NCBI GenBank assembly: GCA_965217865.1
Contig: CBDCJO010000002.1
Coordinates: forward strand, 608,001-672,000
Direction of reading: 5' to 3'
DNA length: 64,000 nt
Source: Candidatus Latescibacterota bacterium
GTDB taxonomy: Bacteria > Latescibacterota > UBA2968 > SICM01
The notes beneath the pieces were generated by a model that had not been told where the DNA came from, ran no database searches, and saw only the letters and a program-made list of their open reading frames with translations. The position numbers were made by a program, and so were the translations under genes. This document shows, one piece after another, positions 42,923 to 53,359 of the stretch (position 1 is its first letter; each line of letters starts with the position of its first letter).

Positions 42923-43089
42923 GAATATTATTGTATTAAAGACTCAGGTGAAAATTTGGGAGCGAACAGCAGGTAGATAAGGATTTTGGAGGGGGGAAGC
43001 AAGAAGGAAATGCAGTAGCAGTGGCAGTAGCAGGAAAGGCAAAGAGAGAGATCGAGAGTCGGAGGTCTGTGGAAATTGAGGTGACGCCT

Positions 43090-43244
43090 CAGCGGGCCAA
43101 CGGCCCGTGATTCCTTGGCCCAGCCCAACGGGCTGGGTTTGAATGTGGGCGAATCCAGCGGGCCAACGGTCCGCGATTCCTTGGCCCAGCCCAACGGGCT
43201 GGGTTTGAATGTGGGCGAATCCAGCGGGCCAACGGTCCGCGATC
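43090..43244. repeat. Tandem 66-bp palindromic REP-like repeat, about 2.3 copies
   Basis: Units start at 43090, 43156 and 43222; each full unit contains the hairpin cccagcccaacgggctggg. Confidence 0.9.
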
Positions 43245-43314
43245 CGGATCAATCAGGATGGCAGACAGGGATTGGGAGATGTGAAATAATCGCGGGCTGA
43301 CCGAAACGAAACCC

Positions 43315-43340: not shown

Positions 43341-43842
43341 GTCGATAGGGCATCGGAAAGCCGGGGTTCGTGGATCGTGACTCGTGACTCGGAAAAACCC
43401 GAATCATATCGATTCAGGCCATTGACTGTTTGGTAGTTTGGTAAACTATTCGGATCGATCTACGAATCACGAATCACGAATCACGGATCCCGGTTTTGTA
43501 ATTCTGAACGCGCGTGCAGAATTGGAAATTCCCATATTCGCGAAAAAAATAGCTTAAAATAGGCATTTTTCTTCCTGCTAAAATATTTTTGCATCTACTT
43601 AAGTGGCCAGGTGCGGCCGCCGTCCCTCAAGTGGCTTCACGCTTCACGAGATACGTTTCACGTTCTTTATTGCACCGGCGTATCTATTTTTATATATTTC
43701 TAATTAGATATTTATCGAAATAGTTGTGTGGTGTTTATTAAGTTTGGGAATTAGCAGATTAAGGCTTGACTTTCAGTCCCTTTTTGGTTATATTAAGTGT
43801 AGTTAAAACAACCAACTTAACCAAAAAAAGGGAGAAAGGATA

Positions 43843-44724
43843 ATGAACTTGTTGACGGCGATTGAAAGGTTCCCGACTCAGGAATCATGCATTGAAAGCC
43901 TTGAGCGGGTGCGGTTCGGAAGTGACCCGTTTTGTCCGTTGTGCGGGGCGGTTGGGGAATGTGCCCGAAAGAAAGAGGGAACCATTGTCGGGCGTTGGAA
44001 CTGCCATGCCTGCAAGTCCAGCTTCAACGTTCTTTCGGGGACAATGTTTCAGGGTACGCATCTTCCGCTCCAGAAGTGGTTTATGGCAATCGCCTTGATC
44101 CTCAACGCCAAGAAGAGCCTGTCCAGCTGCCAGCTTGCCCGGGACCTGAACCTTAACCAACGATCGGCATGGTACATGCAACAGCGGATTCGCGCCGAGA
44201 TGGCGACGAGGCAGGGGAAGATATTGTTGCGCGGGATCGTCGAAGCCGACGAGACCTACGTCGGAGGCAAGCCCAGGAAACGCAACAATCGGAAAGGCGG
44301 CGGCAACGCTCCCAGGGGGCGCGGGACCCGCAAGACTCCGGTTATAGGAGCCGTGGAGCGTGGAGGGAAGGTAGTTGCCCGTGTGGCGGACGATCTGTCA
44401 GGCAGGGGAGTTCTGGACTTCATCAAGCAGGCGATAGAGCCCGAAGGGTCGGTGCTTGTCACGGACGAATTCGGGGCTTACAACGCAGTAAGGCAAATCA
44501 TGAGTCACGCCGTGATTCACCATGCCAGGCATTATGCGGACGGTGATATACACACGAACACGATTGAAGGCGTATGGTCCCTGCTAAAGAGAGCGTGGTA
44601 CGGTTCCCATCATCACTACACGAAGCGTTACACGCCGTTCTACGTGGCCGAGGCGTGTTACAAATACAACAACCGGAAGAACAAGCGGACGTTTGATACG
44701 TTCATGAAGGGTTGCTTCGCATAG
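43843..44724 (+). CDS. IS1595-family transposase
   Basis: Zn ribbon CPLC/CHAC; EADETYVGG, VTDE, HTNTIEGVWSLLKR, YKYNNR. Confidence 0.95.
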   Translation: MNLLTAIERFPTQESCIESLERVRFGSDPFCPLCGAVGECARKKEGTIVGRWNCHACKSSFNVLSGTMFQGTHLPLQKWFMAIALILNAKKSLSSCQLARDLNLNQRSAWYMQQRIRAEMATRQGKILLRGIVEADETYVGGKPRKRNNRKGGGNAPRGRGTRKTPVIGAVERGGKVVARVADDLSGRGVLDFIKQAIEPEGSVLVTDEFGAYNAVRQIMSHAVIHHARHYADGDIHTNTIEGVWSLLKRAWYGSHHHYTKRYTPFYVAEACYKYNNRKNKRTFDTFMKGCFA

Positions 44725-44744
44725 TCTTTTTTCGGGAGGTTAAA

Positions 44745-45035
44745 TTATGTGGATACGGAGTTTTTTTCGTCGCCTAACAGGTAGGCCTTCACCGCCTTCT
44801 TCAGCATCCGGGCAAGCTGAGCAGCAACTGGAGGAGATAGGGCAAGATCGATCCTCTCTTCCCCGCGAACACCCTCGATGGCTATCTCCAGAATTAAAAC
44901 TGATCGGGACGTGGCGTGGCGAACCCCCACGCCTGACACAAGAAGAGCTTGATTGGATAGCTTATTCGCGTCCTGACGGGAAACAACGGGAACCTTCTTC
45001 ATAGATCGACGCACTTGCTCATCTGTCAAAGACAT
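44745..45035 (-). CDS. Hypothetical IS passenger protein
   Basis: 96 aa with SD aaagga upstream; lies downstream of the MTase-HNH gene inside the IS. Confidence 0.55.
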   Translation of the reverse strand: MSLTDEQVRRSMKKVPVVSRQDANKLSNQALLVSGVGVRHATSRSVLILEIAIEGVRGEERIDLALSPPVAAQLARMLKKAVKAYLLGDEKNSVST

Positions 45036-45075
45036 AATTCCGTCCTTTCAGTGGGCCAGTTAGAAATCCTACACG

Positions 45076-46332
45076 TTACAGAATGCCATCCGCTTTCAAT
45101 TTGGAGATCAGATATTCATGGGTATTGCTTCCCTTGACACTATTACAGGCTCCGCAGAGCAGTTGCAGGTTTTCTGGATGGTTGGTTCCTCCTTTGATTT
45201 TGGGTACGATATGATCCACCACGAAGTTTCTGAAGTGAAATGTTGAACGGCATCCTTTGCACATTCCTTCCTGTTTGCCGAACAGGACATGCCTATGTGT
45301 ACGGTAGTTGGGAAGCTTGCCTACGTCCGTTCTTTTCGGGACGTCGGTTCGCTTGACAGGCGTGAAGTCGCTGAACAGGTCGAATTGCCGAATACGGACC
45401 TGGACTAGATCAACCGCCTTCTCCGATATGTCTATACCTACCCATTGGCGGTGCAGTTTCTCGGCAGCAACGCAGGCGGTGGCGCAGCCCGCGAATGGGT
45501 CCAGGACCACATCGCCTTCGTTCGACGAAGCCTTGATGATGCGTTCAAGCAACGCTAATGGCTTCTGGGTTGGGTAGCCGACACGCTCAGCATCCGAGTT
45601 GTTGATTTTCGGGATGTCCCAAACATCGTCAAGTGGAACGCCATAGGTCATAGCGTCATCAAGATAGCGCCGAACCCGTTCGCCACTGCCAGCATCAGAA
45701 AGGACATACTCCCTACCTCCTGAATCTAGGTGTACCTTTTGCTTGCGACGCGCCACGTACTCTTTTTTGTTGTTCCAGGGCCGTACTGGATAGTGAAACG
45801 TAGTATGAGAACTCATGCCGTAGAACAGGATCGTATCGTGGCGCTTCTCTAGGTGGCGCTTCATCCGCTTATTCCACCCGCTATAGTGCCAAACAATCTC
45901 ATTCCGAACGCTTCTTTGTCCGAACACCGCGTCCATGAGCAGCTTCAGGTAATGGCTCGCTGTCTGGTCACAATGTAGATAAATTGAGCCTGTGTCCTTC
46001 AACAATCGCTTCATTTCAAGCAGCCTTACGGCCATCATTATGAGATATGACTTCATGCCTTTCCCGTGCGCCAATCCTGCCGCATCTATAATCGAATATA
46101 AGGCCGGGTGTTTGTCGGCGATAATACCCATCCAAGCAACATCCAAGTCGGACAACGACCATGAATCCTTGAAAACCGCTCCTGCCGCTTCAGATCCAAT
46201 AGGCGCGGCGTAGGTGCGGTTGCTGTTGAACGGCGGATCAAGGTAGATCAGATCGACGCTTTCGGAATTCATACCACGCATGATGTCCAGGTTGTCACCC
46301 GTCCACATCGTGCGGTTCTTGAAGTTGGACAT
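45076..46332 (-). CDS. N6/N4 DNA methyltransferase (beta class) fused to a C-terminal HNH endonuclease
   Basis: GDNL, LIYLDPPF, GSIYLHCD, YPTQKP, VLDPFAGCAT, WVGIDIS; C-terminal CKGC...VDHIVPKIKGGTNHPENLQLLCGACNSVK. Confidence 0.92.
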   Translation of the reverse strand: MSNFKNRTMWTGDNLDIMRGMNSESVDLIYLDPPFNSNRTYAAPIGSEAAGAVFKDSWSLSDLDVAWMGIIADKHPALYSIIDAAGLAHGKGMKSYLIMMAVRLLEMKRLLKDTGSIYLHCDQTASHYLKLLMDAVFGQRSVRNEIVWHYSGWNKRMKRHLEKRHDTILFYGMSSHTTFHYPVRPWNNKKEYVARRKQKVHLDSGGREYVLSDAGSGERVRRYLDDAMTYGVPLDDVWDIPKINNSDAERVGYPTQKPLALLERIIKASSNEGDVVLDPFAGCATACVAAEKLHRQWVGIDISEKAVDLVQVRIRQFDLFSDFTPVKRTDVPKRTDVGKLPNYRTHRHVLFGKQEGMCKGCRSTFHFRNFVVDHIVPKIKGGTNHPENLQLLCGACNSVKGSNTHEYLISKLKADGIL

Positions 46333-46430
46333 GGTATGAAGTTACTCAGTTTGGTTTGTAAAGTCAAGCCTTAATCTGCTAATTGCGTTAAGTTTAGACT
46401 CTTATCCTTTTCAGATCAGAGGAGGCGTTC

Positions 46431-46502: not shown

Positions 46503-46950
46503 GGGAATTATATATTATTTTACCCTTGACATGCCGCCTGAAATTGCTTATATTTATATGTAAATAAAGGAGGTTATGTTATGGGAAAAGGGCCTGGAAA
46601 GTATTACAGGAAGGGGATTTCGTTATTGGACCTGACAAAACGTTTTCCGAACGACGGCATGGCGGAAGATTGGTTCGTTCGAATCCGTTGGCCTAATGGT
46701 GTTCGATGTCCGGCATGCAAGTCCAGCGACGTTCAATCACGTCCAAAAAGAAAGCCTCAACCTTACCGATGCCGGAAATGCCGCAAGGATTTCTCCATGA
46801 AAACGGGAACGTTGATGCAAGGATCAAATCTCGGGTATCAGAAATGGGCCATAGAAATTTATCTTTTTGCAACTGGAATGAAGGGTACGTCAAGCATGAA
46901 GTTGCATCGGGATCTCGGAATAACACAGAAAAGCGCATGGTACCTGGCTG
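46503..46950 (+). mobile_element. Second, truncated IS1595-family element (left end plus transposase N-terminus from 46581)
   Basis: Begins gggaatta; promoter TTGACA-17-TATATT; RWPNGVRCPAC, YRCRKC, SSMKLHRDLGITQKSAW; no DDE domain. Confidence 0.85.
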
Positions 46951-47351
46951 TTTTCGTTCCGGCGCTTATCATCAACAGAACCGTTCCTGCGACAAGCATA
47001 AGCCATCCCCATTCAAGATTGATAAACAACCAGATGAAAAGACCGATTGATGTTCCACTAGTTATCCATAATGTAACCAGAAAGATTGAAATAACAGCCA
47101 GGATTAGGACGACACCCCATCTTCTTCACCATTAATCGATCCAAGCAATTCAAGTAAATGTTGTTTCGACATTCTCATATTTCTCCCCTCCGCATGACCA
47201 ATGAACTCATTCAAAATAAGGAGATTGCGTGAACAAAATCGAAAATAAAGGAAACATCGGTCGAGGAAAGACTAAAACTGGACGAAAACTAACACCTAAA
47301 AACCTCGCCCATGCCATTATCAATACTCCACCCCCAAAAAAGCGACAGCGT

Positions 47352-47561
47352 TCATGACAGTTTGGGGGGTAAAGAGGCAGTAGGGCCTTGTGATGGAAAT
47401 ATCTCAAGCTCCAGGTGCTCGAAGAAAAACTTGGATTGCCAATAGATAAAGTATGGCAACAGAATACCAAACGTGCAAATCGTGAGAACTATCAACCCTA
47501 ATGACATGCAGAAGAATTCTCCAAAACTCCCCTTGAATACAACTCGACCAATGGAGTGCAT
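47352..47561 (-). CDS. Small membrane protein (DUF898/YjgN-like)
   Basis: FKGSFGEFF...LTICTFGILLPYF. Confidence 0.55.
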   Translation of the reverse strand: MHSIGRVVFKGSFGEFFCMSLGLIVLTICTFGILLPYFIYWQSKFFFEHLELEIFPSQGPTASLPPKLS

Positions 47562-47831
47562 ACTGGCATCCCTCCCTGTGGGGGTGACGTGACCTCCTTT
47601 GACACCCTAAGATGGGGATGCCGGGCCATGTCACCATCACGCAAGAGAAATGCGGGAAAGTTCTACCTATTCGCCTGGATACGGGGAATGACCCCATACC
47701 GGGTAAAAAACGGCTATTGTATTCAGCAGAGGACCCGACATGGCGGGCTCTTGCATATATGATGGTGACAAGGGTAAGATACTACAATGGATATGCGCTG
47801 CCAAGGGTAAAATAATATATAATTCCCTTTC

Positions 47832-51492: not shown

Positions 51493-51832
51493 CTTCTTTG
51501 TGTAGAATGCATATGCCCATACTCAAGATGGCACACCGCACTACCTGCCTTAGGTTGCCGAAGTCGCCAGAACCGGGGAGTGCACGTGTTGGTTGCCGTC
51601 GGACAAAGAAAGGTATATATCCTCTTCTGCTTTCCCCTAGTGTCGTGTCCCAGAAGTTCCTTACAAAAGAAAGCCTCCAAAAACGTAGCGGTGGCTGTCA
51701 TTTTGATCGAGAGCGAGCGAAGAACGCACCAACTGTCTGATAGTTCGGGACATAGAGATCCTTCGCTCCGTTCAGGGTTTACAGACCGCTATCCGAGAAA
51801 TTATTGAAGGAATTTCCGGGACACGACACTAG

Positions 51833-53359
51833 CAGCCCGTTGAAGAACTACCTTTCAACACACATAAACGGAAAAGACGCCTGGAGTGCGGGTCGGATAA
51901 ATCAAGGTAAGGAGATTGAGCAGGAGACGCTGATAAGAGGTTAAAAAGGTGACCGAGGGCAGCAAAGCGTGATTGTAGGACGAGCAGTAGACGCTGCAAG
52001 GCCTTGGCCAGGTCCTGGAGGGCCTTCGGAGTACCTACGCCCATCACTTTGCGCATGAGCAGAGCCAGGTTGCAGCCCCCGATGTGGATCAGCAAACGCT
52101 TGAGGATATTGCCGCGGTCTCTCAAGTGCAACCTGCGCATGCCACCGGTATCATATGTGTGAGCGATGGTTCTTTCCACCCGTTCTGCACGACTTCGGCG
52201 CAAGGCCTTGCCGCGATCTCCCTTGATCCGGCGTCGATTCGCATATACCGCGGCCTGCTCATCTCGTCGGCCGTTCCACTTGCGGCGTCCCCGATCCGGT
52301 TCTGAAATGTAACTCCGGATGCCGCCTTGCTTCAGACTGGTCAATACATCGTTGCTATGATATCCTTTGTCCGCAACCACCTCCCGTATACGCTGTCTGT
52401 GCAAACGTTTGGCAGCTTTTTCGTCCTTCGCGACCTGCTTGAGATTGAGCGGCGCCTCGAGCAGCGTCCAGGACAACGACTCGGTATCTCCTTCATCTGC
52501 TCCCGACAACGCCACTGCCACAATGGCATTGGTGTCCAGATCCACCGCGTGCTCCACCTTGTGCGCCATGTGCGTGCGACCGTCCTTCATCTTAGCGATC
52601 TTGGCATCCGGGTCGTGCGGGTGCTCCCAGTCCTGGTTCGATCCCTTCTTCGGTCGCTTCTTATCGATCTTGGACAAGTCCTCGCGGGTAGGCGTTTCAA
52701 TGCCCGAGGCCTTGGCCAGATTCTCAAGGAATGCCTGGTAGCCTTCACCCGTGTCACGGCGTACAATGCTGCGCATCGCGGCGTTGGCCTCCAGTGTCGT
52801 AGCATCCACGCCCAACGTCTTCCCCTTCACCAGACCCGCTTTGCACAAGACCCTCAGGATCCACTTGAAAACCGCTTCGTGAACTTCCAAGGGAAGCCGA
52901 TGCCGGATGCGAGACAGGCTGGAATGATCCGGGGTCTGTTCGTCAAGGGCATACCCCAAAAACCGGCGCAACGTCAGCGAGTCAGATACACGCCATTCGA
53001 TCCCACGTTCCGAATCAAGTCCCTCGAAATACCCAATCAAAAGCATCCGAAAATAAACCCCGGGCGGAATGCCCTTGCGACCCATATGAGGAGCGTAATA
53101 CCGCTGGCAAAGCCCTTCGACGAACTCGTCGAACCCGTTCGCCTCCAATACCTGATTCAGCTTCTCGTAGAACGGATGACCCGGAGATTTCACCAAAGTG
53201 TTCGATGCGATGAACAGGTTTTCCTGTCTCTGTCGTCCTCGTTTTCCCATTGCCATTTGCTCGTCCTCCCTTCTCAGTTTGAACCTGATATATCATAGGA
53301 CCAAACCACAAGGAAAGACAACAGTCATCTTGGCATAAACGCACTTTTTCAACAGGCTG
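51833..53359 (-). mobile_element. IS1182/IS5-like insertion sequence, copy 2 (transposase 51829-53256)
   Basis: Nearly identical to copy 1 with the same TIRs. One extra base near 51967 changes the C-terminus. Flanks are CTAG / CTAT. Confidence 0.92.

Follow-up and report, generated by a model that had tools for sequence, protein, structure and literature searches.

An IS1595-Family Element Carrying a Methyltransferase-HNH Fusion, a Probable Single-Chain Restriction-Modification Enzyme, in a Latescibacterota Genome

The stretch analyzed here (the window) comprises 64,000 nucleotides of a Candidatus Latescibacterota bacterium (contig CBDCJO010000002.1, positions 608,001 to 672,000 of the forward strand) and contains, at 43746-46387, an intact insertion sequence (IS) of the IS1595 family, 2642 bp long. 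Convergent with its transposase, the element encodes a 418-aa protein in which a beta-class DNA amino-methyltransferase is fused to a C-terminal Zn-binding HNH domain. Judging from sequence and structure prediction, we estimate at about 60% the probability that this cargo is a one-gene, ATP-independent, type IIC-like restriction-modification (R-M) enzyme, acting as a predicted dimer and carried as an exchangeable IS1595 passenger. The features of the element, in window coordinates, are as follows.

43738..43745, no strand: 8-bp target-site duplication, left copy, TTAAGTTT; one copy is left in the empty-site join
43746..43773, plus strand: left terminal inverted repeat (TIR), 28 bp, inner 25 bp perfect
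43766..43794, plus strand: predicted inward sigma70-type promoter for the transposase, -35 TTGACT inside the left TIR, 17-nt spacer, -10 TATATT
43843..44724, plus strand: IS1595-family DDE transposase, 293 aa, intact, with an N-terminal Zn ribbon
44745..45035, minus strand: 96-aa passenger open reading frame (ORF)
45076..46332, minus strand: 418-aa beta-class amino-methyltransferase with C-terminal Zn-binding HNH, convergent with the transposase
45097..45261, minus strand: HNH domain, residues 358-412; Zn ligands C358/C361/C393/C396; predicted active site D373-H374, N388, N397
45478..45501, minus strand: S-adenosylmethionine-binding motif I, DPFAGCAT, residues 278-285, an FxGCA variant in place of FxGxG
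45583..45888, minus strand: variable central region, residues 149-250, predicted target-recognition domain (TRD), whose ends also lie in the predicted dimer interface
46228..46239, minus strand: catalytic motif IV, DPPF, residues 32-35, present in 118 of 120 homologues, the other 2 being gapped
46339..46367, minus strand: predicted leaderless cargo promoter, TTGACT inside the right TIR, 17 nt, TAACTT, 6 nt, ATG, no Shine-Dalgarno
46360..46387, minus strand: right TIR
46388..46395, no strand: 8-bp target-site duplication, right copy, TTAAGTTT

The Methylase-HNH Protein

Domain searches placed PF01555 (N6_N4_Mtase) at residues 26-310 of the 418-aa protein (E 3e-47) and the HNH families PF01844/PF14279 at residues 358-412 (E 3e-12 / 2e-13), and found no ATPase domain; PADLOC labels the protein MTase_II. 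The order of its motifs, IV followed by the variable region and then I, is that of the beta class, and so is its fold: the top Foldseek matches of the AlphaFold model (predicted local distance difference test (pLDDT) 85.9, predicted template modelling score 0.86, 98 of 120 listed homologues aligned) were M.RsrI, M.BceJIV, CcrM, and M.MboIIA, all beta-class enzymes (E 3e-16 to 4e-13). A helical insert at about residues 36-110 is specific to the family. The beta-class methyltransferase-HNH fusion named in the original prediction, which had been made from the letters of the stretch, is thus supported by motif order, Foldseek matches, and HNH families alike, with both active sites conserved.

In the top 120 homologues, the motif I pattern DPF-G-C-A-T is present in all, the last Gly of this motif being Ala family-wide, and PTQKP and the four Zn cysteines are almost invariant. 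The predicted HNH active site is similarly conserved (D373 in 120, H374 in 119, N388 in 118, and N397 in 119). When the 150 best representatives at 50% clustering were considered, all four of these residues were kept in 113 of 123 complete HNH domains, and the D-H/N/N pattern is also kept in every one of the 79 genome loci, out of 80, that have an HNH; these 80 loci, to which all such counts below refer, are the best 80 of 305 matching stretches in GTDB genomes. Median dN/dS (the ratio of nonsynonymous to synonymous substitution) was 0.21 for the HNH versus 0.13-0.14 for the methylase halves (219 pairs of 55 genes, the pairs not being independent), and by this measure the HNH is under purifying selection, with a dN/dS of about 0.2. 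Methylase and nuclease lie in one polypeptide, and the nuclease active-site residues appear intact, as in type IIC enzymes.

Other identities for the protein were rejected. The HNH part scored 39 bits against NF040563 (cut-off 175) and only weakly against IscB and Cas9d models; for an RNA-guided nuclease of the IscB/TnpB type, no RuvC family was matched and only 55 nt upstream and 41 nt downstream of the gene are available, although no Rfam search was run. A type III R-M system would include a res gene, and none is found in the element, where the neighbors of the gene are the transposase and the 96-aa ORF. An intein was discarded because the HNH is C-terminal and there is no extein.

Variable Recognition Region and Predicted Dimer

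In beta-class methylases the central region is established, from its position, as the part that recognizes DNA, and because of the same position residues 149-250 are taken here as the predicted TRD. Their median pairwise identity was 0.28, versus 0.69, 0.77, and 0.59 for the other parts of the protein, and among 317 pairs with close flanks, 221 were less than 35% identical within the region, which varies in length from 80 to 178 residues and falls into 30 clusters (116 of 120 proteins parsed). On these comparisons, residues 149-250 behave as an exchangeable module. Whether the central region varies was a check proposed in the original prediction, and it is indeed swapped among otherwise similar copies, even within this genome. 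A negative correlation between TRD identity and flank identity probably arose as an artefact because the matches were ranked by total score, and no use was made of it.

A homodimer is supported by modelling, with a score of 0.79 against 0.00 for the best of three controls, contact agreement between runs of at least 97%, and pLDDT of at least 81. The pass mark is attained by 20 of 30 solved pairs and by 1 of 23 single chains; resemblance to beta-class dimers of known structure may explain why the model passes. The predicted interface comprises residues 76-237.

Structure and Mobility of the Element

The inner TIR bases, 43749-43773 and 46360-46384, are complementary at 25 of 25 positions, whereas the outermost three are unequal (GGG versus CGC). 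The transposase scores 186 bits against NF033547 (cut-off 75), with PF12762 and PF12760 also above their cut-offs, and its catalytic triad is presumably D136/D208/E242, with K249, a candidate assignment based on family motifs. A transposase with a Zn ribbon, TIRs of about 25 bp, and an AT-rich 8-bp target duplication are all features of the IS1595 family; the ends resemble those of its ISNwi1 group, a tentative subgroup placement. The element is real, goes beyond a chance arrangement, and is of a known kind. The original prediction had described a perfect 8-bp duplication, TIRs with 25 identical bases, an intact transposase, and a convergent cargo of a beta-class methyltransferase fused to a Zn-binding HNH plus a 96-aa ORF, and each of these was found, with TTAAGTTT flanking both sides and both cargo ORFs on the minus strand. 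Its statement that IS1595 members can carry passenger genes likewise matches MTnSag1 and tISCpe8 in the available text of PMC5704250.

A second copy of the element (G000:C2:1809778-1812419) differs at 3 of 2642 bases (99.9% identity), and its duplication matches at 7 of 8 positions. The empty site was detected in contigs of two of four public runs, from two studies, in which 43737 is joined to 46388; the 2650 bases missing between them correspond to the element and a single duplication. On one side, the join is covered by only 22 letters. The likeness cut-off was 90%, the best run is possibly the source sample itself, and the empty site is absent from this genome's own assembly. The insertion is recent and polymorphic, a conclusion with good support from a single analysis.

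The genome contains 12 full-length transposases at 89-100% identity, two of which belong to the copies of the window element, and at least five sibling elements, each with its own perfect AT-rich 8-bp duplication. Two siblings of 2915 bp with perfect duplications carry another allele of the methylase-HNH gene (allele a), and where the window element has the 96-aa ORF they have one of 176 aa. In two others, whose flanks appear swapped, the gene is present as allele b, its linker interrupted by a TAG at codon 323. Three identical siblings of 1804 bp, all flanked by perfect duplications of their own, no longer have the methylase and keep only the last 45 codons of the gene, without the HNH active-site aspartate. 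Allele c adjoins a transposase of only 36% identity, and its methylase-HNH linker is interrupted, two codons from the stop position of allele b, by a 1.55-kb IS (L088:2364-3751; G000:C2:313810-315366; 1557 bp) with an rve integrase core and more than 30 near-identical full copies in the genome. The cargo of further siblings is different again: in one IS1595 element (L086:213-1349), with left-type ends on both sides, a 379-aa HsdR_N-domain gene, another restriction-type cargo, replaces the methylase-HNH; one is followed by a methylase of this clade, 541 aa long, whose C-terminus differs; and one holds small ORFs only. The cargo thus varies among siblings. Since the 1804-bp derivative occurs at three sites, transposition does not depend on the methylase gene in cis, and the element, with two passenger ORFs between its TIRs, corresponds to a transporter IS (tIS).

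Comparison of the alleles located the exchange. Between the window allele and allele a, DNA identity is 28-30% at codons ~182-221 and 90-97% at codons ~282-381. All three alleles in the comparison are mosaics: that of the window is nearer b at codons ~22-81 and nearer a at codons ~282-381.

Promoters directed inward are predicted at both ends. That of the transposase matches the consensus at 10 of 12 positions and, with 5 sites in the region versus 2.6 +/- 1.7 in shuffles, is to be read as a consensus match only. The spacing of the right-end promoter is the same in alleles a and b, and its position weakly suggests a leaderless cargo transcript, possibly controlled by transposase bound to the end. 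A leaderless promoter as a family-wide feature was rejected, since other upstream regions have Shine-Dalgarno-like sites or follow an upstream stop.

Family Size, Distribution, and Vehicles

Every one of the 7999 candidates scored in the homologue search lay within the E 0.001 limit; the 120 at the top of the list were 55-100% identical and almost all methyltransferase-HNH proteins. The element is not rare, its cargo being one member of a very large family. The HNH is in the same chain in 124 of the 150 best representatives, in 11 the methylase is followed by a short tail or none, several representatives look frameshifted, and a few end in Mrr-like or T5orf172 domains, the latter presumably of the GIY-YIG type. 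As the same methylase clade also ends in these domains, a C-terminal nuclease fold is a common theme. Longer forms were also observed, such as P0169 (650 aa), in which the methylase-HNH is further fused to ankyrin repeats and the HNH site is altered, and a relative (L095, G012:C1:2192767-2196333) within an open frame of 864 aa, roughly double the normal size.

The 80 genome loci come from Acidobacteriota, Chloroflexota, Poribacteria, Proteobacteria, Binatia, and others, and several of the host names are of the sponge-symbiont type, e.g., Spongiihabitans and Poriferihabitaceae, the habitat being deduced from these names. The distribution is patchy, with the gene in 8 of 30 related genomes searched, and the gene is rare in viral contigs, where one distant locus (36%) was found. 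A phage-borne origin was rejected in view of that single distant locus and of the best phage-collection match checked, which is a Mrr-type fusion.

An IS1595-like transposase or a fragment of one lies within 2.5 kb of the gene in 28 of the 80 loci, some of which are copies within one genome, and in 6 of 31 metagenome loci, many of which are short. The gene is enclosed by inverted repeats and a perfect 8-bp duplication in 14 of the 80. These 14 include other vehicles: two loci (L021:2287-5526 and L042:3676-6631) are IS1-like, with GGTAGTGG ends and matches to NF033558 that lie below its curated cut-off (E 1e-15 / 1e-17). Two others (L034:3814-5294 and L040:3857-5395) are cassettes of 1.5 kb, bounded by IS1595-like ends and flanked by perfect 8-bp duplications; they contain hardly more than the methylase-HNH gene, with no transposase inside, and are probably non-autonomous mobile units. 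At a further locus (L001) the cargo is 81% identical and the transposase only 37%. Its presence on IS1595 elements, IS1-like elements, and transposase-free cassettes indicates that the gene is a passenger moving between vehicles, often without one. Of the IS1-like elements, L021 also holds a SocA-like antitoxin ORF, and the 108-aa ORF of L042 resembles by eye a passenger of the 1804-bp element (L084:443-766), a hint that IS1-like and IS1595 elements share a passenger pool.

The gene is broken in 10 of the 80 loci, although some cases may be assembly errors. A tendency of lesions to remove the nuclease would fit two of the four alleles in this genome, but was rejected because 8 of the 10 broken outside genes break within the methylase.

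Comparison with Known Systems

As a transposon, the element is similar to MTnSag1 (tISSag10) and tISCpe8 as described in the available text of PMC5704250, with which it shares an IS1595 DDE transposase, TIRs of about 25 bp, an 8-bp duplication, AT-rich targets, several copies per genome, and a passenger unrelated to transposition. However, those elements carry lincosamide-resistance genes in Firmicutes, whereas the present one carries a methylase-HNH gene with a variable small ORF, and the cargo of its siblings differs.

As an enzyme, the cargo conforms to the one-chain description of type IIC given in the accessible portion of PMC12707154. It resembles the type IIC/IIL MmeI family (excerpts of PMC2731913) and DrdV (excerpts of bioRxiv 10.1101/2021.01.06.425610) in having one chain, no partner gene, a conserved frame, and a fast-changing recognition region. 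Unlike the MmeI family, whose members in the same excerpts of PMC2731913 are gamma-class proteins of 908-1184 aa with an N-terminal PD-ExK nuclease and a C-terminal TRD, it is a beta-class protein of 418 aa with a central TRD and a C-terminal Zn-HNH, and so falls outside the type IIG/IIL (MmeI-like) architecture. Fold, the motif order IV-TRD-I, and the predicted homodimer are shared with M.RsrI, M.BceJIV, CcrM, M.MboIIA, and type III Mod (EcoP15I), while the helical insert, the FxGCA motif I, the fused HNH, and an element without res or a separate restriction gene set the protein apart from these beta-class methylases. McrA, TagI, VcaM4I, and BrxU, according to the parts of PMC12707154 available, also combine an N-terminal DNA-recognizing part with a C-terminal HNH bearing D-H/N/N and form dimers (predicted in the present case), but they read modified DNA and have no methylase. 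Since the N-terminal part of the protein studied here has the motifs of an active methylase, its predicted target is unmodified DNA.

The closest sister architecture is that of methylase-Mrr-like fusions (e.g., Streptomyces phage BarryBee gp51, WP_309185678.1), which have a related beta methylase (about 34-40% identity), a variable middle, and a C-terminal nuclease fold, but end in Mrr_cat/NA-iREase1 instead of HNH and are annotated only as DNA methyltransferase. The gene of BarryBee gp51 (L101:2465-4120) adjoins an integrase, and its phage is cultured, which makes this related methylase with Mrr-like/NA-iREase1 a tractable member of the sister architecture. No paper was found on a beta methylase-HNH fusion or on its carriage by IS1595; REBASE, ISfinder, most subscription papers, and supplementary tables lay outside the search, and REBASE entries or such tables may list members with motifs. 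Two HNH passages in the available text of PMC10305163 concern separate neighboring genes and not a fusion. The cargo is apparently an uncharacterised variant of the single-chain R-M enzymes.

Proposed Mechanism and Alternative Explanations

A mobile one-gene R-M module was among the readings in the original prediction, and it is also the one favored here. Under the proposed mechanism, a homodimer would form through the methylase and recognition parts, the swappable region of ~100 residues would select a short DNA site, and the methylase would mark this site on host DNA, probably at N6-adenine, as the DPPF motif suggests. On unmarked incoming DNA, each HNH would nick one strand near the site, and a double-strand break would need two HNH domains, supplied either by one dimer or by two sites brought together as in DrdV and MmeI. 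DrdV illustrates, in the excerpts of bioRxiv 10.1101/2021.01.06.425610, how an enzyme with both functions can keep methylation, which is slow and takes place at one site, apart from cleavage, which is fast and involves several; the same scheme may apply to the methylase-HNH protein. Both genes would be transcribed inward from promoters with -35 boxes in the TIRs, the cargo mRNA being leaderless; such promoters would permit expression in unrelated hosts, damped when transposase binds the ends. The transposon would provide spread and multiple copies that exchange recognition regions, and the host would gain a new restriction specificity. It is possible, and we propose it tentatively, that these proteins represent a new R-M architecture of about half the MmeI-type size, in which a dimer of beta-class methylases brings its own HNH blades and accepts a plug-in recognition module of ~100 residues. 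IS1595 and IS1-like transposons would carry it across phyla, with the promoter provided by their terminal repeats.

Several observations weigh against an R-M enzyme carried and expressed in this way, and some of them fit other explanations. The HNH is cut off from an intact methylase in two of the four full-length alleles (b and c), which means that loss of the nuclease does occur; 10 of 123 complete HNH domains have a change in one or more of the four active-site residues; and the sister C-terminal domains match NA-iREase1, a Pfam family of 'inactive restriction-endonuclease' domains, so that a nuclease fold need not cut. The uncoupling by the TAG in b and by the IS in c, the 11 of 150 representatives with a short or missing tail, and these sister domains would be expected of an orphan methyltransferase in effect, marking a motif for protection from other restriction enzymes or for altered expression, with an HNH that serves only in DNA binding, sensing, or folding. 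We consider this unlikely, as D-H/N/N has persisted in 113 of 123 distant HNH domains as well as 79 of 80 loci, the HNH evolves at a dN/dS of about 0.2, and a domain with a purely structural role would not be expected to retain the general-base histidine. Furthermore, the residues listed for the predicted dimer interface include none from the HNH, and the model leaves the coordination of two nicks unexplained. A single HNH per chain, outside the interface, would suit a selfish, self-protected, site-specific nickase, whose nicks in unmarked DNA would lead to recombination or gene conversion, spreading the gene and shuffling recognition regions with little defence value; the mosaic alleles within one genome, the weak matches to IscB and Cas9d models, and the 52 of 80 relatives without a detected IS point in the same direction. 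However, ordinary recombination among repeated IS copies also predicts mosaicism, the 55 nt upstream and 41 nt downstream of the gene leave no space for a guide RNA, and the sibling cargo includes other restriction-type genes, which together make the nickase decidedly unlikely.

The link to IS1595 and the predicted expression are also open to objection. The carriage by IS1595 originally described holds insofar as IS1595 backbones bear the gene again in 28 of 80 loci, but the gene is not tied to this family: no IS1595-like transposase lies within 2.5 kb in the other 52, and IS1-like elements and cassettes carry it as well. The right-end promoter is below the threshold of the promoter scan, and among 60 non-redundant regions upstream of the gene the leaderless-type hexamer was seen in just 8, against 2.6 expected (starts were found for 74 of the 80 loci). 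Characterised single-chain enzymes are moreover gamma-class with an N-terminal PD-ExK nuclease in the passages of PMC2731913 and PMC6158711 available, in agreement with the original prediction, and offer no direct precedent. The recurrence on IS1595 backbones, the location inside the TIRs, and the predicted promoter in the right TIR could be read as signs of a transposition helper, with the methylase or HNH acting on the element ends, the target, or the donor site as TnpB/IscB do in other IS families. This is highly improbable, given an 81% identical cargo beside a 37% identical transposase (L001), the carriage of the gene by IS1-like elements as well, the absence of an intact methylase gene of this clade from 5 of the 12 close transposase copies in the genome, and a variable recognition region unsuited to a fixed target. 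An addiction module, also suggested in the original prediction, would retain the transposon because loss of the element lets methylation lapse while residual nuclease kills the cell; R-M systems can act as such selfish modules (accessible portion of PMC12707154), and both activities appear intact. This explanation is nevertheless quite improbable. Two activities in one chain would be expected to dilute together, the 1804-bp derivative without methylase and HNH aspartate sits at three sites with perfect duplications, the empty site occurs in two of four runs, and broken alleles are frequent, including 10 of 80 outside genes (among which some assembly errors may be counted).

If the proteins do represent such a new R-M architecture, the family would constitute a community-wide library of restriction specificities and a compact, reprogrammable scaffold of methylase plus nuclease. 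An active 418-aa beta-class methylase-HNH would be a different one-chain solution to the distinction of self and non-self, with at least 30 natural recognition modules for specificity engineering. In sponge microbiomes, the available text of PMC5099237 gives 2.48-5.08 versus 0.18 R-M gene copies per megabase; the methylase-HNH family may be linked to this enrichment and could explain part of the excess, for which it would offer a testable vehicle. Standard pipelines would count such genes as plain methylases, as in the MTase_II label of PADLOC. The family merits a bench test, and the window copy, one of many and on a transposon of a known kind, adds the detail of an empty site, four alleles in one genome, and predicted promoters in the ends.

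The 96-aa ORF and Neighboring Features

The 96-aa ORF is preceded by GAAAGGA, has two outside homologues at 73-74% identity, and is probably a real gene. No Pfam, NCBIfam, or PADLOC family and no homologue in JGI metagenomes were found for it; the Atlas lead DUF6295, at 0.87, is under the 0.9 threshold and is not a confirmed assignment, and the AlphaFold model is of low confidence (pLDDT 55), with no fold match at E <=0.001. Within the genome it occurs only in the two copies of the window element, and its slot is variable among siblings. It is a rare, exchangeable passenger: its presence in the cargo, as first described, stands, but it is not a fixed part, being replaced by the 176-aa ORF in the siblings with allele a.

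A second, defective IS1595-family element lies 115 bp to the right (46503-47827). It has perfect terminal repeats of 28 bp, a transposase truncated after ~122 codons, a 100% identical copy at G000:C2:676364-677691, and partial copies elsewhere in the genome; its flanks contain no matching duplication. The gene at 51829-53256 encodes a DUF772/DDE_Tnp_1 transposase, which we take to be IS1182-like, and a near-identical gene sits in the passenger slot of the allele-b element (L083). To the left of the IS1595 element, tandem GC-rich hairpin-like repeats, similar to repetitive extragenic palindromic sequences, extend over 43000-43250 and have roughly 20-50 matches in the genome.

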